DNA of 64,000 nucleotides, from NCBI GenBank assembly GCA_964448855.1, contig CAYUXI010000013.1, forward strand, positions 674-64,673, given 5' to 3'. The first letter of the stretch is position 1. Every line of letters starts with the position of its first letter. The stretch comes from an uncultured Oscillospiraceae bacterium. GTDB lineage: Bacteria > Bacillota > Clostridia > Oscillospirales > QAMX01. The notes under the pieces were generated by a model. It was not told the DNA's origin, ran no database searches, and saw only the letters and a program-made list of their open reading frames with translations. The position numbers and the translations under genes are program-made. Below, one piece after another: positions 53,283 to 60,321 of the stretch.

Positions 53283-53311
53283 TTGACGTGCGAATCGATC
53301 TATGGTATACT
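53283..53311 (+). promoter_or_regulatory. SigA promoter of the nucleotidyltransferase gene, divergent from hprK
   Basis: TTGACG-17-TATACT with extended TG at 53303-53304. Confidence 0.7.
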
Positions 53312-53413: not shown

Positions 53414-55102
53414 ATGCCATCTATGACCGATCGATTGATGCAGTTTCTTCAGCTGCACGCATCTGCCAAATCCCCTGCAGCGTTGGATGTCGTCGCTTTC
53501 CTGTCCGCACACCGTGTTCCCCTGCCGAGCGCCGCAGCGCCTGAAGATCTGGGTCAGAAAATTCAGCTGATTACGCAGCAGTATGTCCAGACAAAGCTGC
53601 TCAATGCCATGCAGGAGTTGCTTTTGTGTTTCCAATCGCACAGCATCGACATCCTGTTTCTGAAAGGTCCGCTGCTGGGATTGGAGCTGTATGGTGAAAC
53701 CGGAATCCGTCCAACGTCCGATCTCGATCTGTTTGTTCCGGATGCTCAGGTTGCCGATGCGCTGGAGGCATTGACGCAGCTCGGTTATACCCGAACAAAC
53801 GGCACGCCCTACTCCGGGAAGGATCGTGTTTATGACCTGAACCGTGGCGATATGCGTCTGAAAATGATGGGGCGACATCTGACTGCCGTTCGATCTTCCA
53901 AAAACTGGACGATCACGCTGGAATTGCACGCCACGCTGTTTCGGCACTATGATACCGTTTCACCAACCTCTTTGGCATCACAGGCAGACCTGATTGTTTC
54001 TGACAGCCGCACCCTATCCTGTCAGGGGGTTGACTATCCCGTTCCGGGCGTTTTGGATTCGTTCCTGATGCTCTGCACGCACTTTGCACGGCATACGGTG
54101 GAAGCAGTGACCGCATTCTGTGCCAAAAAGCAGCAGCCGCGTTTTCCGCTGCATCAGCTGCATGATCTCGCACTCTTTTTTGAGCACTGGTCGGATGTGC
54201 TGTCAGCTTCCGACCTTTTGGCGCGTGCCATAGCGTTCGGCAGTCAGGCCGATCTGGCATTTGCCTGCCGCTATCTGCAGGAGGTTTACGGAATCGACCT
54301 TTGGCAATCCATTGCCCCTGATCTTTTGGGTGAAGCCGATGATGATTTTGAAAACGATATCGTATGGAGCATTTTGCGGCAGCTTTCCGCCACAGAGCTG
54401 CTGTTTTGCGCACCATCAGACAATCTTGCCCGTTTGAAAAGCGTTGCTCCTGCTCGCCGCTGTTATGAGCTCCAGACCGGGCGCGAGCTTTCTGCCGTTC
54501 TGGCCGACTGCGAGGTTCGGGAGGTCTTTGATGATCCGTCCCGGCCACCTTTGCGGGAGCCTTATTCCTTTCGTTGGGGTGCTGCGCGTTCAGATGATCA
54601 GCTCATGTTTTGCGTGGAAATTCCAACAGAGCGTGTTGTTTTTCTGGAAGGATGCCAGAAAAACTTTCGTCGCAACTGTACCCGCTCCGACTGTCCGAGA
54701 GACTGTGCTGCGCAGCACGGCGCCAACACGCTGATTCGTTTGCTGCTGCCCGGAACCTGCTGTTCAGTCGAGGCCGGAAGCTGCATGAATCGCTATGAAA
54801 TCAGCGTGATCCAGACAGCAGAAGGTCTCCGGATAACCGCAGACCGCAATGGGCATCCATTTGCTCTATCCGGTGCGGCTGTTGCAGAGAAAGATGGCTG
54901 CTGGCAATTTCGGTTTCAGTTGCCGATACCTGATCCCGGCGATTCCAACGCGCTGCCTTTTATGATTTCCCGTGAAATTCTGCTTCCATTTGCTCACCGT
55001 CCGGATCAGGCCATCGCCTTCAGCGTGCGCTGGCTGAACAGTGTGGCGGTTTCACATCAGACCTGTCTGAGCTGCGGGCTGCTGCTGGCATCCCGCCGGT
55101 GA
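53414..55102 (+). CDS. Nucleotidyltransferase family protein (NTP_transf_5-like) with a C-terminal extension
   Basis: FLKGPLLGLELYGETGIRPTSDLDLFV signature, LELH, LCTHFARH, LHDLAL; RBS GAGAGGAG. Confidence 0.8.
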   Translation: MPSMTDRLMQFLQLHASAKSPAALDVVAFLSAHRVPLPSAAAPEDLGQKIQLITQQYVQTKLLNAMQELLLCFQSHSIDILFLKGPLLGLELYGETGIRPTSDLDLFVPDAQVADALEALTQLGYTRTNGTPYSGKDRVYDLNRGDMRLKMMGRHLTAVRSSKNWTITLELHATLFRHYDTVSPTSLASQADLIVSDSRTLSCQGVDYPVPGVLDSFLMLCTHFARHTVEAVTAFCAKKQQPRFPLHQLHDLALFFEHWSDVLSASDLLARAIAFGSQADLAFACRYLQEVYGIDLWQSIAPDLLGEADDDFENDIVWSILRQLSATELLFCAPSDNLARLKSVAPARRCYELQTGRELSAVLADCEVREVFDDPSRPPLREPYSFRWGAARSDDQLMFCVEIPTERVVFLEGCQKNFRRNCTRSDCPRDCAAQHGANTLIRLLLPGTCCSVEAGSCMNRYEISVIQTAEGLRITADRNGHPFALSGAAVAEKDGCWQFRFQLPIPDPGDSNALPFMISREILLPFAHRPDQAIAFSVRWLNSVAVSHQTCLSCGLLLASRR

Positions 55103-55203
55103 AGCTTTCGTCGTTTGCTGCAGCCGCCAATTCGCAAAGCCGAATCGGCTGATTATCGAACCTGTACTCGACACATTTGCCAGACCGGGACATCGCATAT
55201 GAA

Positions 55204-55402
55204 TTGAAGGATTTTTACAATTTTGGTGTTGGTATGGTGGTGTATTTGTGAAAGCGCAGACTGAACCTGTTTCAGGTGATGTCTGCGCTTTTTTCGTTTT
55301 TTTGTAAAGAAACGGCCATACCATTGCACCGACAAGGAATCAATAAGGAGAAGGTCGGATCATGGGAACTGAATGGAAAAAGAGTCGGTATGCATTCTTT
55401 AT
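55204..55402 (+). repeat. Copy 1 of the duplicated rSAM leader plus first 13 codons
   Basis: 55204-55296 matches 55547-55638 (2 substitutions, 1 T indel); 55338-55402 is identical to 55687-55751 (65 bp). Confidence 0.95.
55251..55294 (+). terminator. Intrinsic terminator-like hairpin in leader copy 1
   Basis: AAAGCGCAGAC...GTCTGCGCTTT followed by a T-tract. Confidence 0.7.
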
Positions 55403-55433
55403 GTTTTCTATGTTTCTTTCACTAAGCTCTTGA
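55362..55433 (+). pseudogene. Truncated 5' stub of the rSAM gene (MGTEWKKSRYAFF + 10 unrelated residues)
   Basis: Identical RBS and first 13 codons to the 55711 CDS, then TGA at 55431-55433. Confidence 0.75.
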
Positions 55434-55458
55434 CAGTCGAATGAAAATCTGATATAAT
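55430..55458 (+). promoter_or_regulatory. Perfect-consensus SigA promoter upstream of the rSAM operon
   Basis: TTGACA (55430-55435), 17 nt, TATAAT (55453-55458). Confidence 0.9.
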
Positions 55459-55546
55459 TTAGATAATTAAAGAATTCAATGATTTCATCAGTAAGCAACC
55501 AGATGAGCCCGCACTCAGTTTAGCATGCAAAGAAACCGCATGGTAT

Positions 55547-55751
55547 TTGAAGGATTTTTACAGTTTTGGTGTTGGTATGGTGGTGTATTTGTGAAAGCGC
55601 AGACTGAGCCTGTTTCAGGTGATGTCTGCGCTTTTTCGGGCTTTGCCAAGAAAAATCAAAACCGGTCATACCATTTATCAGCAAGTAATCAATAAGGAGA
55701 AGGTCGGATCATGGGAACTGAATGGAAAAAGAGTCGGTATGCATTCTTTAT
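55547..55751 (+). repeat. Copy 2 of the duplicated leader (the one attached to the intact rSAM gene)
   Basis: See copy 1; contains hairpin 55594-55634, RBS AAGGAG and ATG 55711. Confidence 0.95.
55594..55636 (+). terminator. Terminator-like hairpin inside the rSAM 5' leader (attenuator candidate)
   Basis: 11-bp stem plus T5 between the promoter and the start codon. Confidence 0.65.
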
Positions 55752-57033
55752 TGAGCAGGAAAATGGCGAAATGATCATTTATCATTCGGCAACAGGTTTT
55801 ATCTTACAATGTACAGAACCGGAATACATTGAAAAGGCAGTAAAGATCGCCAATCAATCCGTTTTTGAAATGGATGAAGAAAATGACCTGATGTGTTTGC
55901 TACGAGACAAAGGCGTTCTTTTGGCAAACGATTTTGACGAAGATGCTCAAGTTCGGCAATTGTACGATCGGGTCGTTATGCACAGGAATCAACTTTCTCT
56001 GACATTAATTGTAACGAGGCAGTGTAATTTCCGTTGCGTTTACTGCGGTCAGAAACACGAGAGCAACAAGCGTATGTCTCGTGAAGTCTATGATAGAATC
56101 ATATCGTTGATCGAAAAAACATGCCATGATAAAAAGATAGACAGTGTCTCTGTTTCTTTTTTTGGCGGAGAACCGCTTTTGGAATGTGAAAGAATTCTAT
56201 ATTTTTTGGATAAATTACAGGAATTTTCAAAAAAGACCGGGATTCCCTATTATGCAGGAATGACCACAAATGCATATTTGCTGACGAAAAATAATTTTGA
56301 GCGTTTGGCACAGCTGAATTGTTTGGATTATCAAATAACACTGGATGGTATGGATGAGACTCATGACCAAAAAAGATATCTCATAGGAAAAAGGAAAACA
56401 TGGAAAACCATCGTAGATAATCTGCTCTATATCAAGTCAACAGATTATCCTTTTAAAATCATTTTGAGGACAAATTTCGATACAGAAGTTTTGCAATCAG
56501 TAGATTCTTATTTGAATTTCGTATCGGAAAATTTGAATGATGATCGTATCCTGATGTATCATGAAACCATTAAAGACCACGGGAATCCCGAACAAAACGA
56601 ATACATGTCGCAATCTGAAGCAATTTTCAGCAATGTCGAAATTTCCCGTCTTTTGAAAGAGAAGAATTTGAAATCGTCACTTGTTTTTTCTTCAACAACC
56701 CCTGCCTGTTCGATGTGTCGAGCAGGAATTCCTGATTATTATGTAATCGATTACGATGGAAGTATCAAAAGATGTACTCACCGATTGGATACCGAACCAA
56801 ACTACCTAGGAAATCTGTCAGATGATGGTTCCATGATCATTGACCATTCTCTGGATGCAAAATGGATTTATCGGGACTATTTGTCTGATGATAAATGTAA
56901 AGAGTGCAAATTACTTCCTCTGTGTTTTGGAAAACGTTGTCCTGTTGCGCGGGTAGACCCCCAATTGGCGTTCGACTGTAACAAAGATTTACGTGCTTTG
57001 GAATTGGAGGAAATCCTACGCGTTCATTTGTAA
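55711..57033 (+). CDS. Radical SAM/SPASM peptide maturase
   Basis: CNFRCVYC (CxxxCxxC), FFGGEPLL, TTNAYLL, QITLDG; SPASM Cys ACSMC, KRC, CKECKLLPLCFGKRCP, FDC; ~85-aa N-terminal extension (RRE-like). Confidence 0.92.
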   Translation: MGTEWKKSRYAFFIEQENGEMIIYHSATGFILQCTEPEYIEKAVKIANQSVFEMDEENDLMCLLRDKGVLLANDFDEDAQVRQLYDRVVMHRNQLSLTLIVTRQCNFRCVYCGQKHESNKRMSREVYDRIISLIEKTCHDKKIDSVSVSFFGGEPLLECERILYFLDKLQEFSKKTGIPYYAGMTTNAYLLTKNNFERLAQLNCLDYQITLDGMDETHDQKRYLIGKRKTWKTIVDNLLYIKSTDYPFKIILRTNFDTEVLQSVDSYLNFVSENLNDDRILMYHETIKDHGNPEQNEYMSQSEAIFSNVEISRLLKEKNLKSSLVFSSTTPACSMCRAGIPDYYVIDYDGSIKRCTHRLDTEPNYLGNLSDDGSMIIDHSLDAKWIYRDYLSDDKCKECKLLPLCFGKRCPVARVDPQLAFDCNKDLRALELEEILRVHL

Positions 57034-57074
57034 AGAGACAGGATAAACTATTCAGGAAGAAAGGAGGATCAAGT

Positions 57075-57212
57075 ATGCATGTGATTCAAGATGCAGCGAC
57101 CCCCGCAGTGATTGCACGCAGAGCGCAAAGCAATGGTTGTGATTGCAATTGTGATTGTCATGGTGGTTCCGGTAGCTCCGGGGGAACCAATTGCAATTGT
57201 CATTGCAGCTAA
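57075..57212 (+). CDS. Cys-rich RiPP precursor 1, 45 aa: MHVIQDAATPAVIARRAQSNGCDCNCDCHGGSGSSGGTNCNCHCS
   Basis: Manual translation, not in the ORF track; strong RBS GAAAGGAGG 6 nt upstream; 7 Cys; paralogous to precursor 2. Confidence 0.88.
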   Translation: MHVIQDAATPAVIARRAQSNGCDCNCDCHGGSGSSGGTNCNCHCS

Positions 57213-57246
57213 TCGTCCCAATCTGCACAACAATTTTATTGAAAGG

Positions 57247-57390
57247 ATGAGAAAATACCATATCTTAAAAGACATTACGATTCCTGCGTCCATTGCACGC
57301 AACAACCAGGAAAATGGTTGTGATTGCGATTGTAATGAAGGTTGCAATGGCGGTTCTGCCGGTAGAAATTGCCACTGTCTTTGCAGCTAA
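57247..57390 (+). CDS. Cys-rich RiPP precursor 2, 47 aa: MRKYHILKDITIPASIARNNQENGCDCDCNEGCNGGSAGRNCHCLCS
   Basis: 3' half of track ORF 57112-57390; aligns with precursor 1 in leader and core; start uncertain because GAAAGG abuts the ATG. Confidence 0.82.
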   Translation: MRKYHILKDITIPASIARNNQENGCDCDCNEGCNGGSAGRNCHCLCS

Positions 57391-57397
57391 GCCGTCT

Positions 57398-57437
57398 GTC
57401 ACGGCAGGCAGATTTTTTGAAATCTGCCTGCCGTGAC
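57398..57437 (+). other. 18-bp perfect stem-loop between the precursors and the ABC gene
   Basis: GTCACGGCAGGCAGATTT-tttg-AAATCTGCCTGCCGTGAC; no strong U-tract follows. Confidence 0.85.
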
Positions 57438-57483
57438 TCCAAATCTTTCCAATCATCCAACACACAGAAAAGAGGATTCTGTT

Positions 57484-59298
57484 ATGAAAACCTTGAAAAG
57501 GGTACTTGGCTGCCAGTCTTTTATGCTAAAGCGAATGTATCGGGACAGCAAGCGGCTTTTTTATGTGACACTGATTCAGTCGATTCTGACCGGTATGTAT
57601 CCAACCATCGAGCTGGTTATCAGTAGGAACCTGATTGATGCCCTGGTACGGCTTTCCCTGCGGAATGCCATGATCAGTATTGCACTCCTGATCGGCAGCT
57701 CTCTGCTCTATTACGTTCTGAAAAAGCTGCTGAGCTTGATTGCTGCCAATTCATATCAGCTGATTCGACGCCAGATGCGGTTTGATCTTTTTGAAAAGAC
57801 CTGTTCTCTCGATCTGGCCGTGGCAGATTTGCCGGAAAACAGAACCCTGTATGAAGAAGCGCATGGTGCCAATCAGAACAACCGATGTATGCGTGTTCTG
57901 GATTCCTTTTTCAGCATTTTCACCGCCTGTATCACGTTGATTTCTTCCTATATCGTGATGATCGCGGTCGATCCATGGATTATGATTGTCATTGTCGCAG
58001 TGGTGATTCTGCAATCATTTATCACCATTCGCTCGCAGAAGCTGGCTTATGAGACCTGGCGGGAAGATGCCCGAACCAACAAGGAGGCGTCCTATGTTCT
58101 GGGGTTGCTGTTTGACCGCAACTGTGCCTTTGAAATGCGGCTGCACAATCTGTCACAATGGGTCATTCGGAAATACAACAAGGTGCAGACCAAATCCGAT
58201 CAGCTCTGGCTTGAAAATAACAAAAAGCAGCAGAGAAACGATGTTTTGAATTTTGCCGTACAGCTGGTGCAGAAAGCAATTCTTTACGTTTACCTGGCGC
58301 TGCAGATGCTTTACGCCAATATGACCATTGCGAATTTCACGCTGTGCTTCAATTCTCTGAACCAGATTTCCAACAATCTGGTCGCCCTGATCCGCACATT
58401 TATTGATATTTTTGAGGATTCCAAGTATATTTACAGCTATAAGAAATATCTGGCGTTGGAAAACACAATTGCCGTCCATCGGCCGGATGAAAAGCCGGTC
58501 GCCAGAAATGAAGCCCGCAACAACGAAATTGTCTTTGATCACGTCAGCTTCCGTTATCCGGAAGCACCGGCAGACGTTCTGCACGATATCAACCTGCATC
58601 TGGAGCCGCAGAAGTTTTATGTCATCGTCGGTGCGAACGGCGCCGGGAAAACGACGCTGATCAATCTGCTGATGCGTTTGTATGATCCGTCGAGCGGTTC
58701 GATTCGTTTGGGGCCAACCGATATTCGCGACTATGATTTTCAAAGCTATCGGGACTGTTTCGGTGCGGTTTTCCAGAATTTCAAGGTTTTTGATTATTCG
58801 TTCTTTGAAAACATCACGCTGTCCGAAGAGGAAAACGAGGAGATCGATGCAGAGGTTCAGCAGGTCATTCAGAAGGCCGGATTGGCCAACAAGGTGTCGC
58901 AGCTTGCCAAAGGGATGCACACCTGTGTCGGTAAAGCGTTTGACCAGGATGGCATCAAGTTATCCGGCGGCGAATACCAGAAGGTTGCTCTGGCCAGAGC
59001 GCTGTACAGAGACAGTCAGATTCTGATTCTGGACGAGCCATCCAGCGCGTTGGATGCATTGGCAGAGGATGATTTGATTCAGACCTTCCAGCGAGCCAGC
59101 ACCAACCAGACGGTTTTCTATATATCGCACCGTCTCTCCGTGGCACGCTTTGCATATCGCGTGATTTTTATCGGCGATCATACGATTTTGGGCTACGGCA
59201 GCCACGACGAGCTGATGCAGACCTGTCCGCAGTATGCAGAGATGTATACGGCACAGGCCAAATATTACACGGAAACAGAAACTGCCCCTTCGCACTGA
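57484..59298 (+). CDS. ABC exporter (fused TMD + NBD), no C39 peptidase domain
   Basis: TM helices followed by VGANGAGKTTL, LSGGEYQKVALARA, LILDEPSSALD, ISHRLS. Confidence 0.93.
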   Translation: MKTLKRVLGCQSFMLKRMYRDSKRLFYVTLIQSILTGMYPTIELVISRNLIDALVRLSLRNAMISIALLIGSSLLYYVLKKLLSLIAANSYQLIRRQMRFDLFEKTCSLDLAVADLPENRTLYEEAHGANQNNRCMRVLDSFFSIFTACITLISSYIVMIAVDPWIMIVIVAVVILQSFITIRSQKLAYETWREDARTNKEASYVLGLLFDRNCAFEMRLHNLSQWVIRKYNKVQTKSDQLWLENNKKQQRNDVLNFAVQLVQKAILYVYLALQMLYANMTIANFTLCFNSLNQISNNLVALIRTFIDIFEDSKYIYSYKKYLALENTIAVHRPDEKPVARNEARNNEIVFDHVSFRYPEAPADVLHDINLHLEPQKFYVIVGANGAGKTTLINLLMRLYDPSSGSIRLGPTDIRDYDFQSYRDCFGAVFQNFKVFDYSFFENITLSEEENEEIDAEVQQVIQKAGLANKVSQLAKGMHTCVGKAFDQDGIKLSGGEYQKVALARALYRDSQILILDEPSSALDALAEDDLIQTFQRASTNQTVFYISHRLSVARFAYRVIFIGDHTILGYGSHDELMQTCPQYAEMYTAQAKYYTETETAPSH

Positions 59299-59313
59299 GA
59301 GGAGCTGATTATC

Positions 59314-60192
59314 GTGCCTGTATATTGTATATACGGTTTGTCCGTGGAATCCAATCTCGACTTGTCTGATGTAGATGCAGGTCATCCGGGGATCTGTGAT
59401 ATGCGGCTCCATGTGTCCTTTGCAGAAATGCCACCGGTTCAGCCCATACGGATTCTGGAATCTGAGCAATGGTTGACCATTGAGCTCTTCCCCTTCGCGG
59501 TTTATCGGTTGAGCAGGCATTCCAATGATGTTTTTTGTCAGGCTGCGGATTATGAGTCCTTTTACTCAACATTTTTCAATCTGCCGTTTTCGGTCTTTCT
59601 TGTACAACGCGGCGATCTGCTTTTGCATGCCTCATCACTGGTTCACAGTCAGACAGGTGAGTTGCTCGCTTTTGCCGGACAGAAAGGTGTCGGAAAAAGT
59701 ACGCTGGTACAACTTCTGTGTGGGGAAACGTATCAGATTTATGCAGATGATACCCTACGAATTCCGATGGATACCTCAATGGGATTTCGAGGAAATTCGC
59801 TTTTGAAAATAACACCGGAGACATCTGCCCTCATTCAGGGCAGGCTGCAACTGACGGGACATCAAAATGCAGTCGGAAAAAATTATGCAGCTATTCCAAC
59901 AGACTCCCGGCAACGTCAGATTCGGGCAATTGTTCAATTGGCACGAACTTCGGATGCGTCTTTTTCCATCCGACCGGTGAACACCCCGTTACAGCGTACA
60001 CAAATCATCTGCAGGCACCTGACAGGTATCCCATTCTGGACAGCTTCTATGATTCAAAAGGTCATGCAGCTTGTCAAAAGCGTTGAAATACCTGTTTATT
60101 CCATGCGAATCCCCGATTCTCTGCATTGGTTGGAGCAGCAAACGCCGGACATACGCTCTGCGCTTGAACAGGTAACGAACGAAATTCCCTGA
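59314..60192 (+). CDS. HPr-kinase-like protein of the lasso-cluster (PadeK/PsmK-like) type
   Basis: N-terminal YCIYGLSVESNL, LLHASSL, GQKGVGKSTL Walker A, YADD; GTG start after GAGGAG. Confidence 0.75.
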   Translation: MPVYCIYGLSVESNLDLSDVDAGHPGICDMRLHVSFAEMPPVQPIRILESEQWLTIELFPFAVYRLSRHSNDVFCQAADYESFYSTFFNLPFSVFLVQRGDLLLHASSLVHSQTGELLAFAGQKGVGKSTLVQLLCGETYQIYADDTLRIPMDTSMGFRGNSLLKITPETSALIQGRLQLTGHQNAVGKNYAAIPTDSRQRQIRAIVQLARTSDASFSIRPVNTPLQRTQIICRHLTGIPFWTASMIQKVMQLVKSVEIPVYSMRIPDSLHWLEQQTPDIRSALEQVTNEIP

Positions 60193-60201
60193 CATCCATT
60201 C

Positions 60202-60237
60202 AAAAAGCGTCTGCACGCATTTTGTGCAGACGCTTTT
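60202..60237. terminator. Bidirectional terminator closing the RiPP operon
   Basis: AAAAGCGTCTGCAC-gcatttt-GTGCAGACGCTTTT. Confidence 0.85.
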
Positions 60238-60321
60238 GCGTGTCGTCATGAGGAAAAACGCCTTTTGTCGGATAACAGGTCATTTTCTCTGTGATTCAAG
60301 GAGATCTGTAACTTCACATTT
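60202..60321 (-). ncRNA. Candidate ~120-nt small RNA
   Basis: Lies between a minus-strand TTGACA-17-TATAAA promoter and the bidirectional terminator; no convincing ORF. Confidence 0.4.

Follow-up and report, generated by a model that had tools for sequence, protein, structure and literature searches.

The stretch of DNA considered here, hereafter the window, comprises 64,000 nucleotides (nt) of contig CAYUXI010000013.1 from an uncultured Oscillospiraceae bacterium. Between hprK and clpB it holds a low-GC island of genes for a ribosomally made, post-translationally modified peptide (RiPP), with 35-51% GC, compared with 54-62% in the housekeeping genes on either side (dnaG, rpoD, hprK, clpB); the low GC was noted for positions 55000-60300. 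The subject of this analysis is the region directly upstream of the island's radical S-adenosylmethionine (rSAM)/SPASM peptide maturase gene, where the 5' leader and the first 13 codons of that gene are present twice with a promoter between the copies. All features described below lie on the plus strand. Relatives were reached via the maturase protein and the protein of the preceding NTP_transf gene, and their leaders were then aligned; we refer to them as lineages W (the window), V (runs X13-X20 and L025), L (L001, L002, L013 and L014), K (L019) and M (L020).

The locus has the order U-R1-X-R2-rSAM, in which R stands for the 5' leader together with maturase codons 1-13 (approximately 200-245 nt) and X a segment of approximately 105 nt that carries TTGACA-17-TATAAT. 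Spacer U (55103-55188) runs from the stop codon of the NTP_transf gene to leader copy 1 and is, in alignments, collinear with but strongly diverged from the U of lineage L. As delimited by the repeat comparison, R1 (55189-55402) contains leader copy 1, the Shine-Dalgarno sequence (SD), the ATG and the 13 codons, and R2 (55506-55751), which contains the functional leader and the same codons, is orthologous to the lone leader of L001, L014, and L019. Positions 55532-55636 are a gapless 92% match of 55189-55293. The core repeat (55204-55296 against 55547-55638) differs by two A/G substitutions, at 55225 and 55265, and a 1-nt indel in a run of T, and a 65-nt block that includes the SD, the ATG and MGTEWKKSRYAFF (55338-55402 and 55687-55751) shows no difference at all, so that these features of the preliminary description of the locus hold on re-comparison. 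The diverged middle that lies between (55294-55337 against 55637-55686) is still alignable, at 63% identity with 8 gap columns; the perfect repeats in the window are 65 nt and approximately 45-60 nt long, and the start-to-start distances between the repeat copies are 343 and 349 nt. Within the 64-kb window neither repeat block has a further copy, and 100 shuffles produced no match.

Identity between the copies is complete up to 55402 and then ceases, a sharp break after codon 13, whereas R2 continues into the rSAM gene; segment X gave no alignment with rSAM codons 14 onward. Copy 1 opens a stub open reading frame (ORF) of 23 codons (55362-55433), MGTEWKKSRYAFF plus 10 amino acids (aa), whose TGA stop lies inside the -35 hexamer as had been described, and whose tail is not conserved, the indels of lineage L shifting its frame. 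A 19-nt direct repeat of 84% identity (55295-55313 and 57021-57039; CGTTTTTTTGTAAAGAAAC and CGTTCATTTGTAAAGAGAC) also links leader copy 1 with the rSAM stop codon; it is probably a chance match and does not coincide with the junctions of the L025 and L022 deletions described below.

Segment X (55403-55505) has no homologue elsewhere in the window. Its -35 hexamer TTGACA (55430-55435) and -10 hexamer TATAAT (55453-55458) stand at 17-nt spacing with a TG at 55450-55451, and in a promoter scan 55430-55458 was the sole 12/12 sigma-70-type site of the region. The perfect consensus promoter that had been reported between the copies is therefore present, and homologous X segments occur in relatives. 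Transcription would be expected to start near 55465, giving a 5' untranslated region (UTR) of approximately 245 nt. Lineages W, V, L, and K all retain 12/12 hexamers and the 17-nt spacing, with spacer letters that differ at 6-7 of 17 positions, and this invariance despite a varying spacer points to purifying selection on X as a working promoter. In L022, which has lost the rSAM gene, the -10 hexamer has degraded to TATAAC and the leader hairpin is damaged. Because the sister species L019 has X and a single leader without copy 1, X appears to be the operon's own promoter and, as judged from these alignments, X-R2 is the native promoter-leader unit and copy 1 the extra piece.

We looked for inverted repeats bracketing 55430-55458 and found none, the flanking repeats being direct, and no site-specific recombinase occurs among the ORFs across 44-64 kb, which contains housekeeping or RiPP genes only. 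An outward promoter borne on an insertion sequence (IS) or a miniature inverted-repeat transposable element (MITE) was considered and rejected, since the window and the fetched loci contain no second copy of X, and X lacks terminal inverted repeats. The flanking 'duplication' was likewise rejected as an IS or MITE target-site duplication, since it consists of 200+ nt of leader.

The arrangement is not peculiar to one assembly. U-R1-X-R2-rSAM was recovered as separate unitigs, with repeats deeper than the single-copy parts, from gut metagenomes of at least five studies. W-type runs X2, X6, X11, X12, X24, X7, and X9 (three studies, Logan contigs) split the locus into the unitigs expected, each matching the window at 100% identity; depth relative to the flanks was approximately 1.2-3x for the repeat unitigs (65 nt, 44 nt), in most cases close to 2x or higher, and roughly 0.6-1.5x for the unique unitigs (133, 221, and 139 nt). 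The same sequence is present on ENA contigs L016 and L017, and diverged versions of the composite occur in other lineages, among them a metagenome-assembled genome (MAG) and an independent Logan contig that bears the junction. Since the unitigs split as a de Bruijn graph predicts and the repeats have raised depth, in many independent runs, the possibility that the duplication is an assembly artefact from a mis-joined or chimeric contig, against which the preliminary description had cautioned, can be set aside; nothing was found in its favour, and we give it next to no chance.

Leader alignment defined three architectures: A (U'-X-R-rSAM), C (U-R1-X-R2-rSAM), and S (U-R-rSAM). Architecture A was found in L019, where the NTP_transf gene is followed by a spacer of approximately 75 nt, X with TTGACA-17-TATAAT, one leader and the rSAM gene, with no copy 1; we treat L019 as a sister species because its hprK flank is 86% identical to the window. 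The composite C is present in three lineages (W, V, and L) of one uncultured Oscillospiraceae species. In lineage V (runs X13-X20) it appears as a perfect 195-nt repeat unitig at approximately 1.2-2.1x flank depth, and in the lineage L MAG L013 the repeats are 243 nt long with one mismatch and are spaced 351 nt apart. Run X31 independently carries the L-type junction between the end of R1 and X (L-type structures in metagenome runs were examined by matching to the window at 80% likeness). This junction is common to W and L013, reading GCATTCTTT followed by (A)TGT(C)TTTTCTAT, while X itself is diverged between the two, and an identical junction in diverged lineages indicates that the composite arose once.

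Beyond this group, the more distant rSAM homologues L003-L012 (61-66% identity) have other neighbours and no leader homology. An exact-pattern scan of genome contigs with a 51-mer of the SD region gave no matches, a scan of the same kind with the exact hairpin pattern matched solely the MAG behind L013, and scans of metagenome contigs gave no matches. The listed Logan contigs with the lineage M rSAM allele all begin at a break upstream, 168 nt before the ATG in L020 and 22 nt before it in L021; the L020 leader has the middle of the window's copy 1, and its upstream architecture lies beyond the contig start.

Architecture S was found in lineage L in L001, L002, and L014, where the gap ahead of the rSAM gene is 272 nt versus 608-624 nt, and S-form contigs in runs X28 and X30 connect 55085 directly to 55527. 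L014 (S) and L013 (C) show no differences over 1,600 nt of the NTP_transf gene and 1,282 nt of the rSAM gene (2,882 of 2,882 positions identical) and encode the same rSAM protein, over segments in which W and L diverge by 13% and 6.5%, respectively. L025 is a single leader of V type, with V-specific bases at 55204-55213, from which most of the rSAM gene was lost by a separate later deletion. The S form thus occurs independently in two lineages, each time bearing its own lineage's sequence, and the simplest reading is that R1 and R2 have recombined repeatedly, with loss of X and of one repeat each time. The predicted deletion product, a single leader on the upstream spacer with no X and an intact rSAM 5' end, exists; the alternative that all strains would carry the duplication with no deletion variants does not hold in lineages L and V. 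The preliminary description had proposed such a deletion and a comparison with single-copy versions in relatives, and both bore fruit outside the window's lineage (A in L019; S in L001, L002, L014, and L025), with none in W.

These observations fit together as follows. The native unit X-R would comprise a consensus sigma-A promoter and then a structured leader of approximately 200-245 nt with an apical terminator, the SD and the AUG being the predicted pairing partners of its basal helices. A second leader with 13 codons (R1) would have come to lie upstream of X in a single event, after which R1 and R2 would have been homogenised by gene conversion to an extent that differs by lineage. Homologous recombination between R1 and R2 would then remove X and one repeat, 343-351 nt in all, leaving a single leader behind the terminator-bearing spacer of the upstream gene with no dedicated promoter, and this loss of X would have happened in nature at least twice, in lineages L and V. 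We consider it likely that this region constitutes the RiPP operon's promoter and 5' leader and that repeat-mediated loss of X is one recurrent route to its inactivation; such loss is supported by the sequence comparisons, and both its direction, deletion rather than insertion, and its mechanism, recombination, are what we infer from them. Promoterless alleles would presumably lose operon expression. In S strains, the only strong upstream promoter is approximately 2 kb away, before the NTP_transf gene (in the window a promoter-like site was identified by the promoter scan at 53283-53311, TTGACG-17-TATACT with a TG), and its transcripts would have to pass the leader terminator. Lineages L and V, whose perfect repeats are the longest, yielded the S form and W did not, which, on a small sampling, fits length-dependent recombination.

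Several points weigh against this interpretation. No deletion form was seen in the contig data for lineage W, in which the depth of X relative to its flanks averages approximately 0.95. The single-copy L alleles read A5 at a site that is A6 in the two L013 copies, and so are not a simple collapse of that sequence. A single-leader strain could regain X-R2 from a conspecific composite by recombination. Two metatranscriptome runs (patchy Logan contigs) cover neither X nor the leaders, and shuffle tests that compared spacer U with X and with the junction between R and X gave p values from 0.02 to 0.95. The leader structure, finally, rests on five sequences with only two double-sided compensatory pairs, and a shuffle control was not discriminating.

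The mosaic structure of copy 1 bears on how the composite came about. The two copies in the window are 98% identical over the G/U-rich (GU) box and hairpin and 98% identical over the part from the SD to codon 4, and gene conversion is the best explanation for identical patches of this kind. Copy 1's middle (55294-55337) is 89% identical to the L020 leader of lineage M, with no gaps, in contrast to 63% with 8 gap columns to copy 2, so the diverged middle represents a second natural leader allele. This similarity, together with the presence in the sister species of X-R without copy 1, the sharp identity break after codon 13, and a CATT..TTT at both partners as possible microhomology, would agree with a pure recombination scar, an extended form of the alternative that the preliminary description had offered, in which an X-R2-rSAM allele like that of L019 was joined illegitimately into the resident gene at codon 13/14, copy 1 is what remains of the resident allele, and single-leader alleles are ancestral. 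We think this rather unlikely as a full account. L013 (C) and L014 (S) are identical over 2,882 flanking bases, the X of L013 is diverged from every other sampled X and hence did not arrive recently from any of the sampled lineages, the single-leader forms in both L and V bear their own lineage's composite-specific sequence, and neither the microhomology nor the similarity of U to the junction is statistically significant. The composite is moreover old, because one junction is shared across three lineages, and the copies have been homogenised to different extents, so that on these comparisons it is more than a passive scar, even though the affinity of the copy 1 middle to another leader allele supports the scar idea for the origin of copy 1; the deletion and scar readings do not contradict each other. 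A descent of spacer U from X or from the junction, by tandem duplication, subsequent deletion and decay, was rejected as a candidate when the shuffle tests were not significant. The composite may first have formed either by tandem duplication followed by deletion or by an illegitimate join of X-R into codon 13/14.

The depth of X within samples bears on whether promoter loss might be programmed. Across seven V-type runs, the ratio of X to flank depth was 0.80, 0.70, 0.44, 1.30, 0.74, 0.59, and 0.77, and the ratio of R to flank depth in the same runs was 1.71, 1.56, 1.51, 2.09, 1.78, 1.22, and 1.68. In six of the seven, therefore, the X unitig stands at 0.44-0.80x and the 195-nt repeat at 1.2-1.8x instead of 2x, and the two deficits track each other. 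Such values are compatible with 20-50% single-leader genomes, although they are not statistically separable from the W-type scatter (0.62-1.28, mean approximately 0.95), and we take mixed populations in V as a lead and not a finding. A bet-hedging switch, in which the repeats would be kept by selection or programme to generate promoterless non-producers that are restored by gene conversion or conspecific DNA uptake, would account for these deficits, for repeats that are long and near-perfect in three lineages despite the non-coding stub, and for the independence of the single-leader forms in two lineages. Contig k-mer depths are noisy, however, and a form whose junction sits in a repeat longer than k is invisible in contigs, so a minority form would escape notice; the deletion is also irreversible within a clone, and the operon has been lost by frameshift and large deletions as well, as in the ordinary decay of a dispensable trait. 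For these reasons, we judge a switch of this kind unlikely. Of the one-way expression switch that had been suggested for the window, the one-way character of the deletion stands, but a regulatory switch is not supported by contig depths that are blind to a minority form.

The other inactivation routes are of two kinds. A T6 run in the rSAM gene (56202-56207) is T7 in many W-type samples (X6, X11, L016, and L017), and the resulting frameshift splits the protein into 167 aa and a remainder of 257 or 282 aa, depending on the start called; members of the T7 clusters (P0122-P0124) are on 7-13 contigs, while the window and run X2 keep an intact T6. This tract could reflect homopolymer phase variation or simple pseudogenisation. 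Large deletions have also occurred independently in L025 (L025:5640-6230), which lacks 55799 to approximately 57320, and in L022 from a sister species (L022:5640-6420), which lacks 55892 to approximately 57310 and has lost the rSAM gene after approximately codon 60; each fuses the rSAM 5' end with a Cys-rich precursor gene's 3' end. That promoter loss is one of several inactivation routes favours the decay of a dispensable and probably costly trait over a dedicated switch.

The leader itself shows features of a regulatory RNA. Each copy contains a 12+5-bp hairpin followed by a run of T. In copy 1 (terminator 1, 55251-55306) the hairpin at 55251-55291 is followed by TTTTTTCGTTTTTTT, with a folding energy of -26.4 kcal/mol (z = -6.5), and in copy 2 (terminator 2, 55594-55639) the same hairpin at 55594-55634 is followed by TTTTT, at -27.7 kcal/mol (z = -5.0); terminator 2 is placed between promoter X and the rSAM SD. 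RNAalifold and pair counts identified an invariant G/U-rich box (55570-55591) as the 5' strand of a putative long-range helix whose 3' strand (55663-55683) lies downstream of the terminator. In the predicted consensus fold, the SD and start-codon element (55696-55715) is also paired, the SD GGAGA (55696-55700) with 55555-55559 and the start-codon region (55709-55715) with 55537-55543, and these pairs vary little. Window copy 2 and lineage L agree at all 66 aligned positions from the GU box through the hairpin to the U-run, compared with 70-78% identity in neighbouring leader segments and 93.5% in rSAM coding DNA. The terminator is conserved in W, L, K, and M, in L019 by way of a G-C to G-U change. 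The long-range helix varies in its partner strand almost exclusively by transitions that keep the pairs: 11 columns show transitions only and 3 a transversion, in contrast to 8 and 17 columns, respectively, among unpaired neighbours (Fisher p = 0.008).

A scan of 50-64 kb against Rfam at E <= 1 gave no match, and a search for an alternative antiterminator pairing gave no convincing candidate. The leader has the appearance of a structured RNA that is conserved and bears a strong apical terminator, and it may act as a terminator-based regulatory element, or attenuator, behind a constitutive promoter; as such it is a candidate new regulatory RNA, known from one species group only. A long frame in the conserved block (46-56 codons, ending at the SD) was rejected as a conserved protein, the W-versus-L differences falling 7/13/9 at codon positions 1/2/3 and the frame being broken also in L019. 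A short ORF ending in ..GVGMVVYL (55578-55593; also 55235-55250) stops at the foot of the terminator hairpin and has no SD. Its stop is kept at the hairpin by different codons, TGA in W, TAA in M and, in K (L019), a new TGA after a 1-nt insertion, which is a hint that it may be a leader-peptide attenuation device, or else chance. The further step, that the leader of approximately 190 nt is a new cis-regulatory RNA gating a strong constitutive promoter, with a decoy copy kept to make that promoter excisable, seems to us a long shot. If it were true, the excisable promoter would give this gut commensal inherited producer and non-producer states for a Cys-rich peptide, a form of repeat-mediated bet-hedging built from the operon's own leader.

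The island as a whole carries the genes of an rSAM/SPASM RiPP operon. Its first gene (53414-55102) encodes an NTP_transf_5-family protein (Pfam PF14907, E = 1e-29), the start of which is fixed by a 562-aa orthologous call. The maturase (55711-57033, 440 aa) matches PF04055 (3.6e-15) and PF13353 (6.3e-10), and its translation shows the 4Fe-4S cluster motif CNFRCVYC; against the best NCBIfam models (CefB, TIGR04463, and PapB-type) its scores were all far below cutoff (181/600, 177/525, and 113/340). It is followed by two Cys-rich precursor peptides, one of 45 aa read from the ORF (57075-57212, ...NGCDCNCDCHGGSGSSGGTNCNCHCS) and one of 47 aa that is also called as a gene in L020 (57247-57390), by a perfect 18-bp hairpin terminator (57398-57437), and by an ABC exporter of 604 aa, its start taken from orthologous gene calls (57484-59298). 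The last gene (59314-60192) encodes a P-loop protein with a weak HprK-related kinase likeness (TIGR04355, E = 1.7e-5, far below cutoff). In gut metatranscriptome X21, one contig covering the end of the rSAM gene and both precursors (56948-57394) stands at depth 40, with the rest of the island at approximately 3-8, and it ends just before the 57398-57437 terminator. No promoter-like site was found before 56948, and the transcript may be a processed, stable precursor mRNA. The more distant L023, whose NTP_transf protein is 52% identical, has only the NTP_transf and ABC transporter genes at the same hprK-linked site; island content therefore varies between species.

The locus would provide a clean natural case in which a partial duplication places a promoter between direct repeats and so makes expression genetically fragile, and all stages, from X ahead of a single leader through the composite to the form that lacks X, are kept in public metagenomes. 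Recurrent loss of peptide production in gut Oscillospiraceae would bear on the producer/cheater dynamics of bacteriocin-like RiPPs, and for genome mining it suggests caution, since an apparently 'intact' cluster may be a promoterless allele.

Among known systems, the operon is closest in content to the ranthipeptide-type and other Cys-rich-peptide rSAM/SPASM RiPP clusters, for which PapB, CefB, and TIGR04463 serve as references (PMC9413430, PMC10288494). The likeness lies in an rSAM/SPASM maturase beside short Cys-rich precursors and an ABC exporter, and the difference in family-specific NCBIfam scores that are here far below cutoff. Many Firmicutes operons have terminator-based 5' leaders, namely attenuators and riboswitches, and the leader described here resembles them in its consensus promoter, long structured 5' UTR, strong intrinsic terminator before the SD, and a core conserved above coding DNA; it differs in matching no Rfam family at E <= 1, in offering no convincing antiterminator, ligand or regulator, and in being known from one species group only.

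For the origin of the composite, the nearest parallel is homology-facilitated illegitimate recombination in natural transformation, reportedly described by de Vries and Wackernagel in 2002. The process is discussed in PMC6382021 and PMC8116780. It gives a partial duplication of the recipient 5' end beside incoming DNA, as seen here, and our locus likewise shows one sharp non-homologous junction in the gene, after codon 13, with homology on the other side. Unlike the products of that process, it shows no significant microhomology at the junction, and it is an old structure common to several lineages.

Phase variation of gut bacteria through invertible promoters (invertons) offers a parallel for the variation itself: in both cases, a repeat-bracketed promoter lies upstream of a dispensable operon for a surface or secreted product in a gut commensal, and ON and OFF alleles occur in nature. 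Here, in contrast, the repeats are direct, there is no recombinase gene nearby, and the OFF state is a deletion; the direct repeats and the lack of a nearby recombinase rule out an inverton. Tandem-duplication phase variation, as in pneumococcal cap3A, belongs to the same field of comparison. In Burkholderia thailandensis, an IS-flanked duplication of 208.6 kb undergoes RecA-type duplication/deletion heterogeneity (PMC9946442, PMC12124856). The repeats of our locus are instead 65-243 nt of the operon's own leader and not IS elements, a promoter segment of 105 nt is lost, and the deletion is one-way. As in B. thailandensis, long direct repeats would allow homologous recombination to alter copy number and thereby expression, with both forms found in close genomes. 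The locus accordingly shows the marks of a direct-repeat polymorphism, with repeats that are long and similar enough to recombine and both forms present in near-identical backgrounds, the short form with exactly one repeat.

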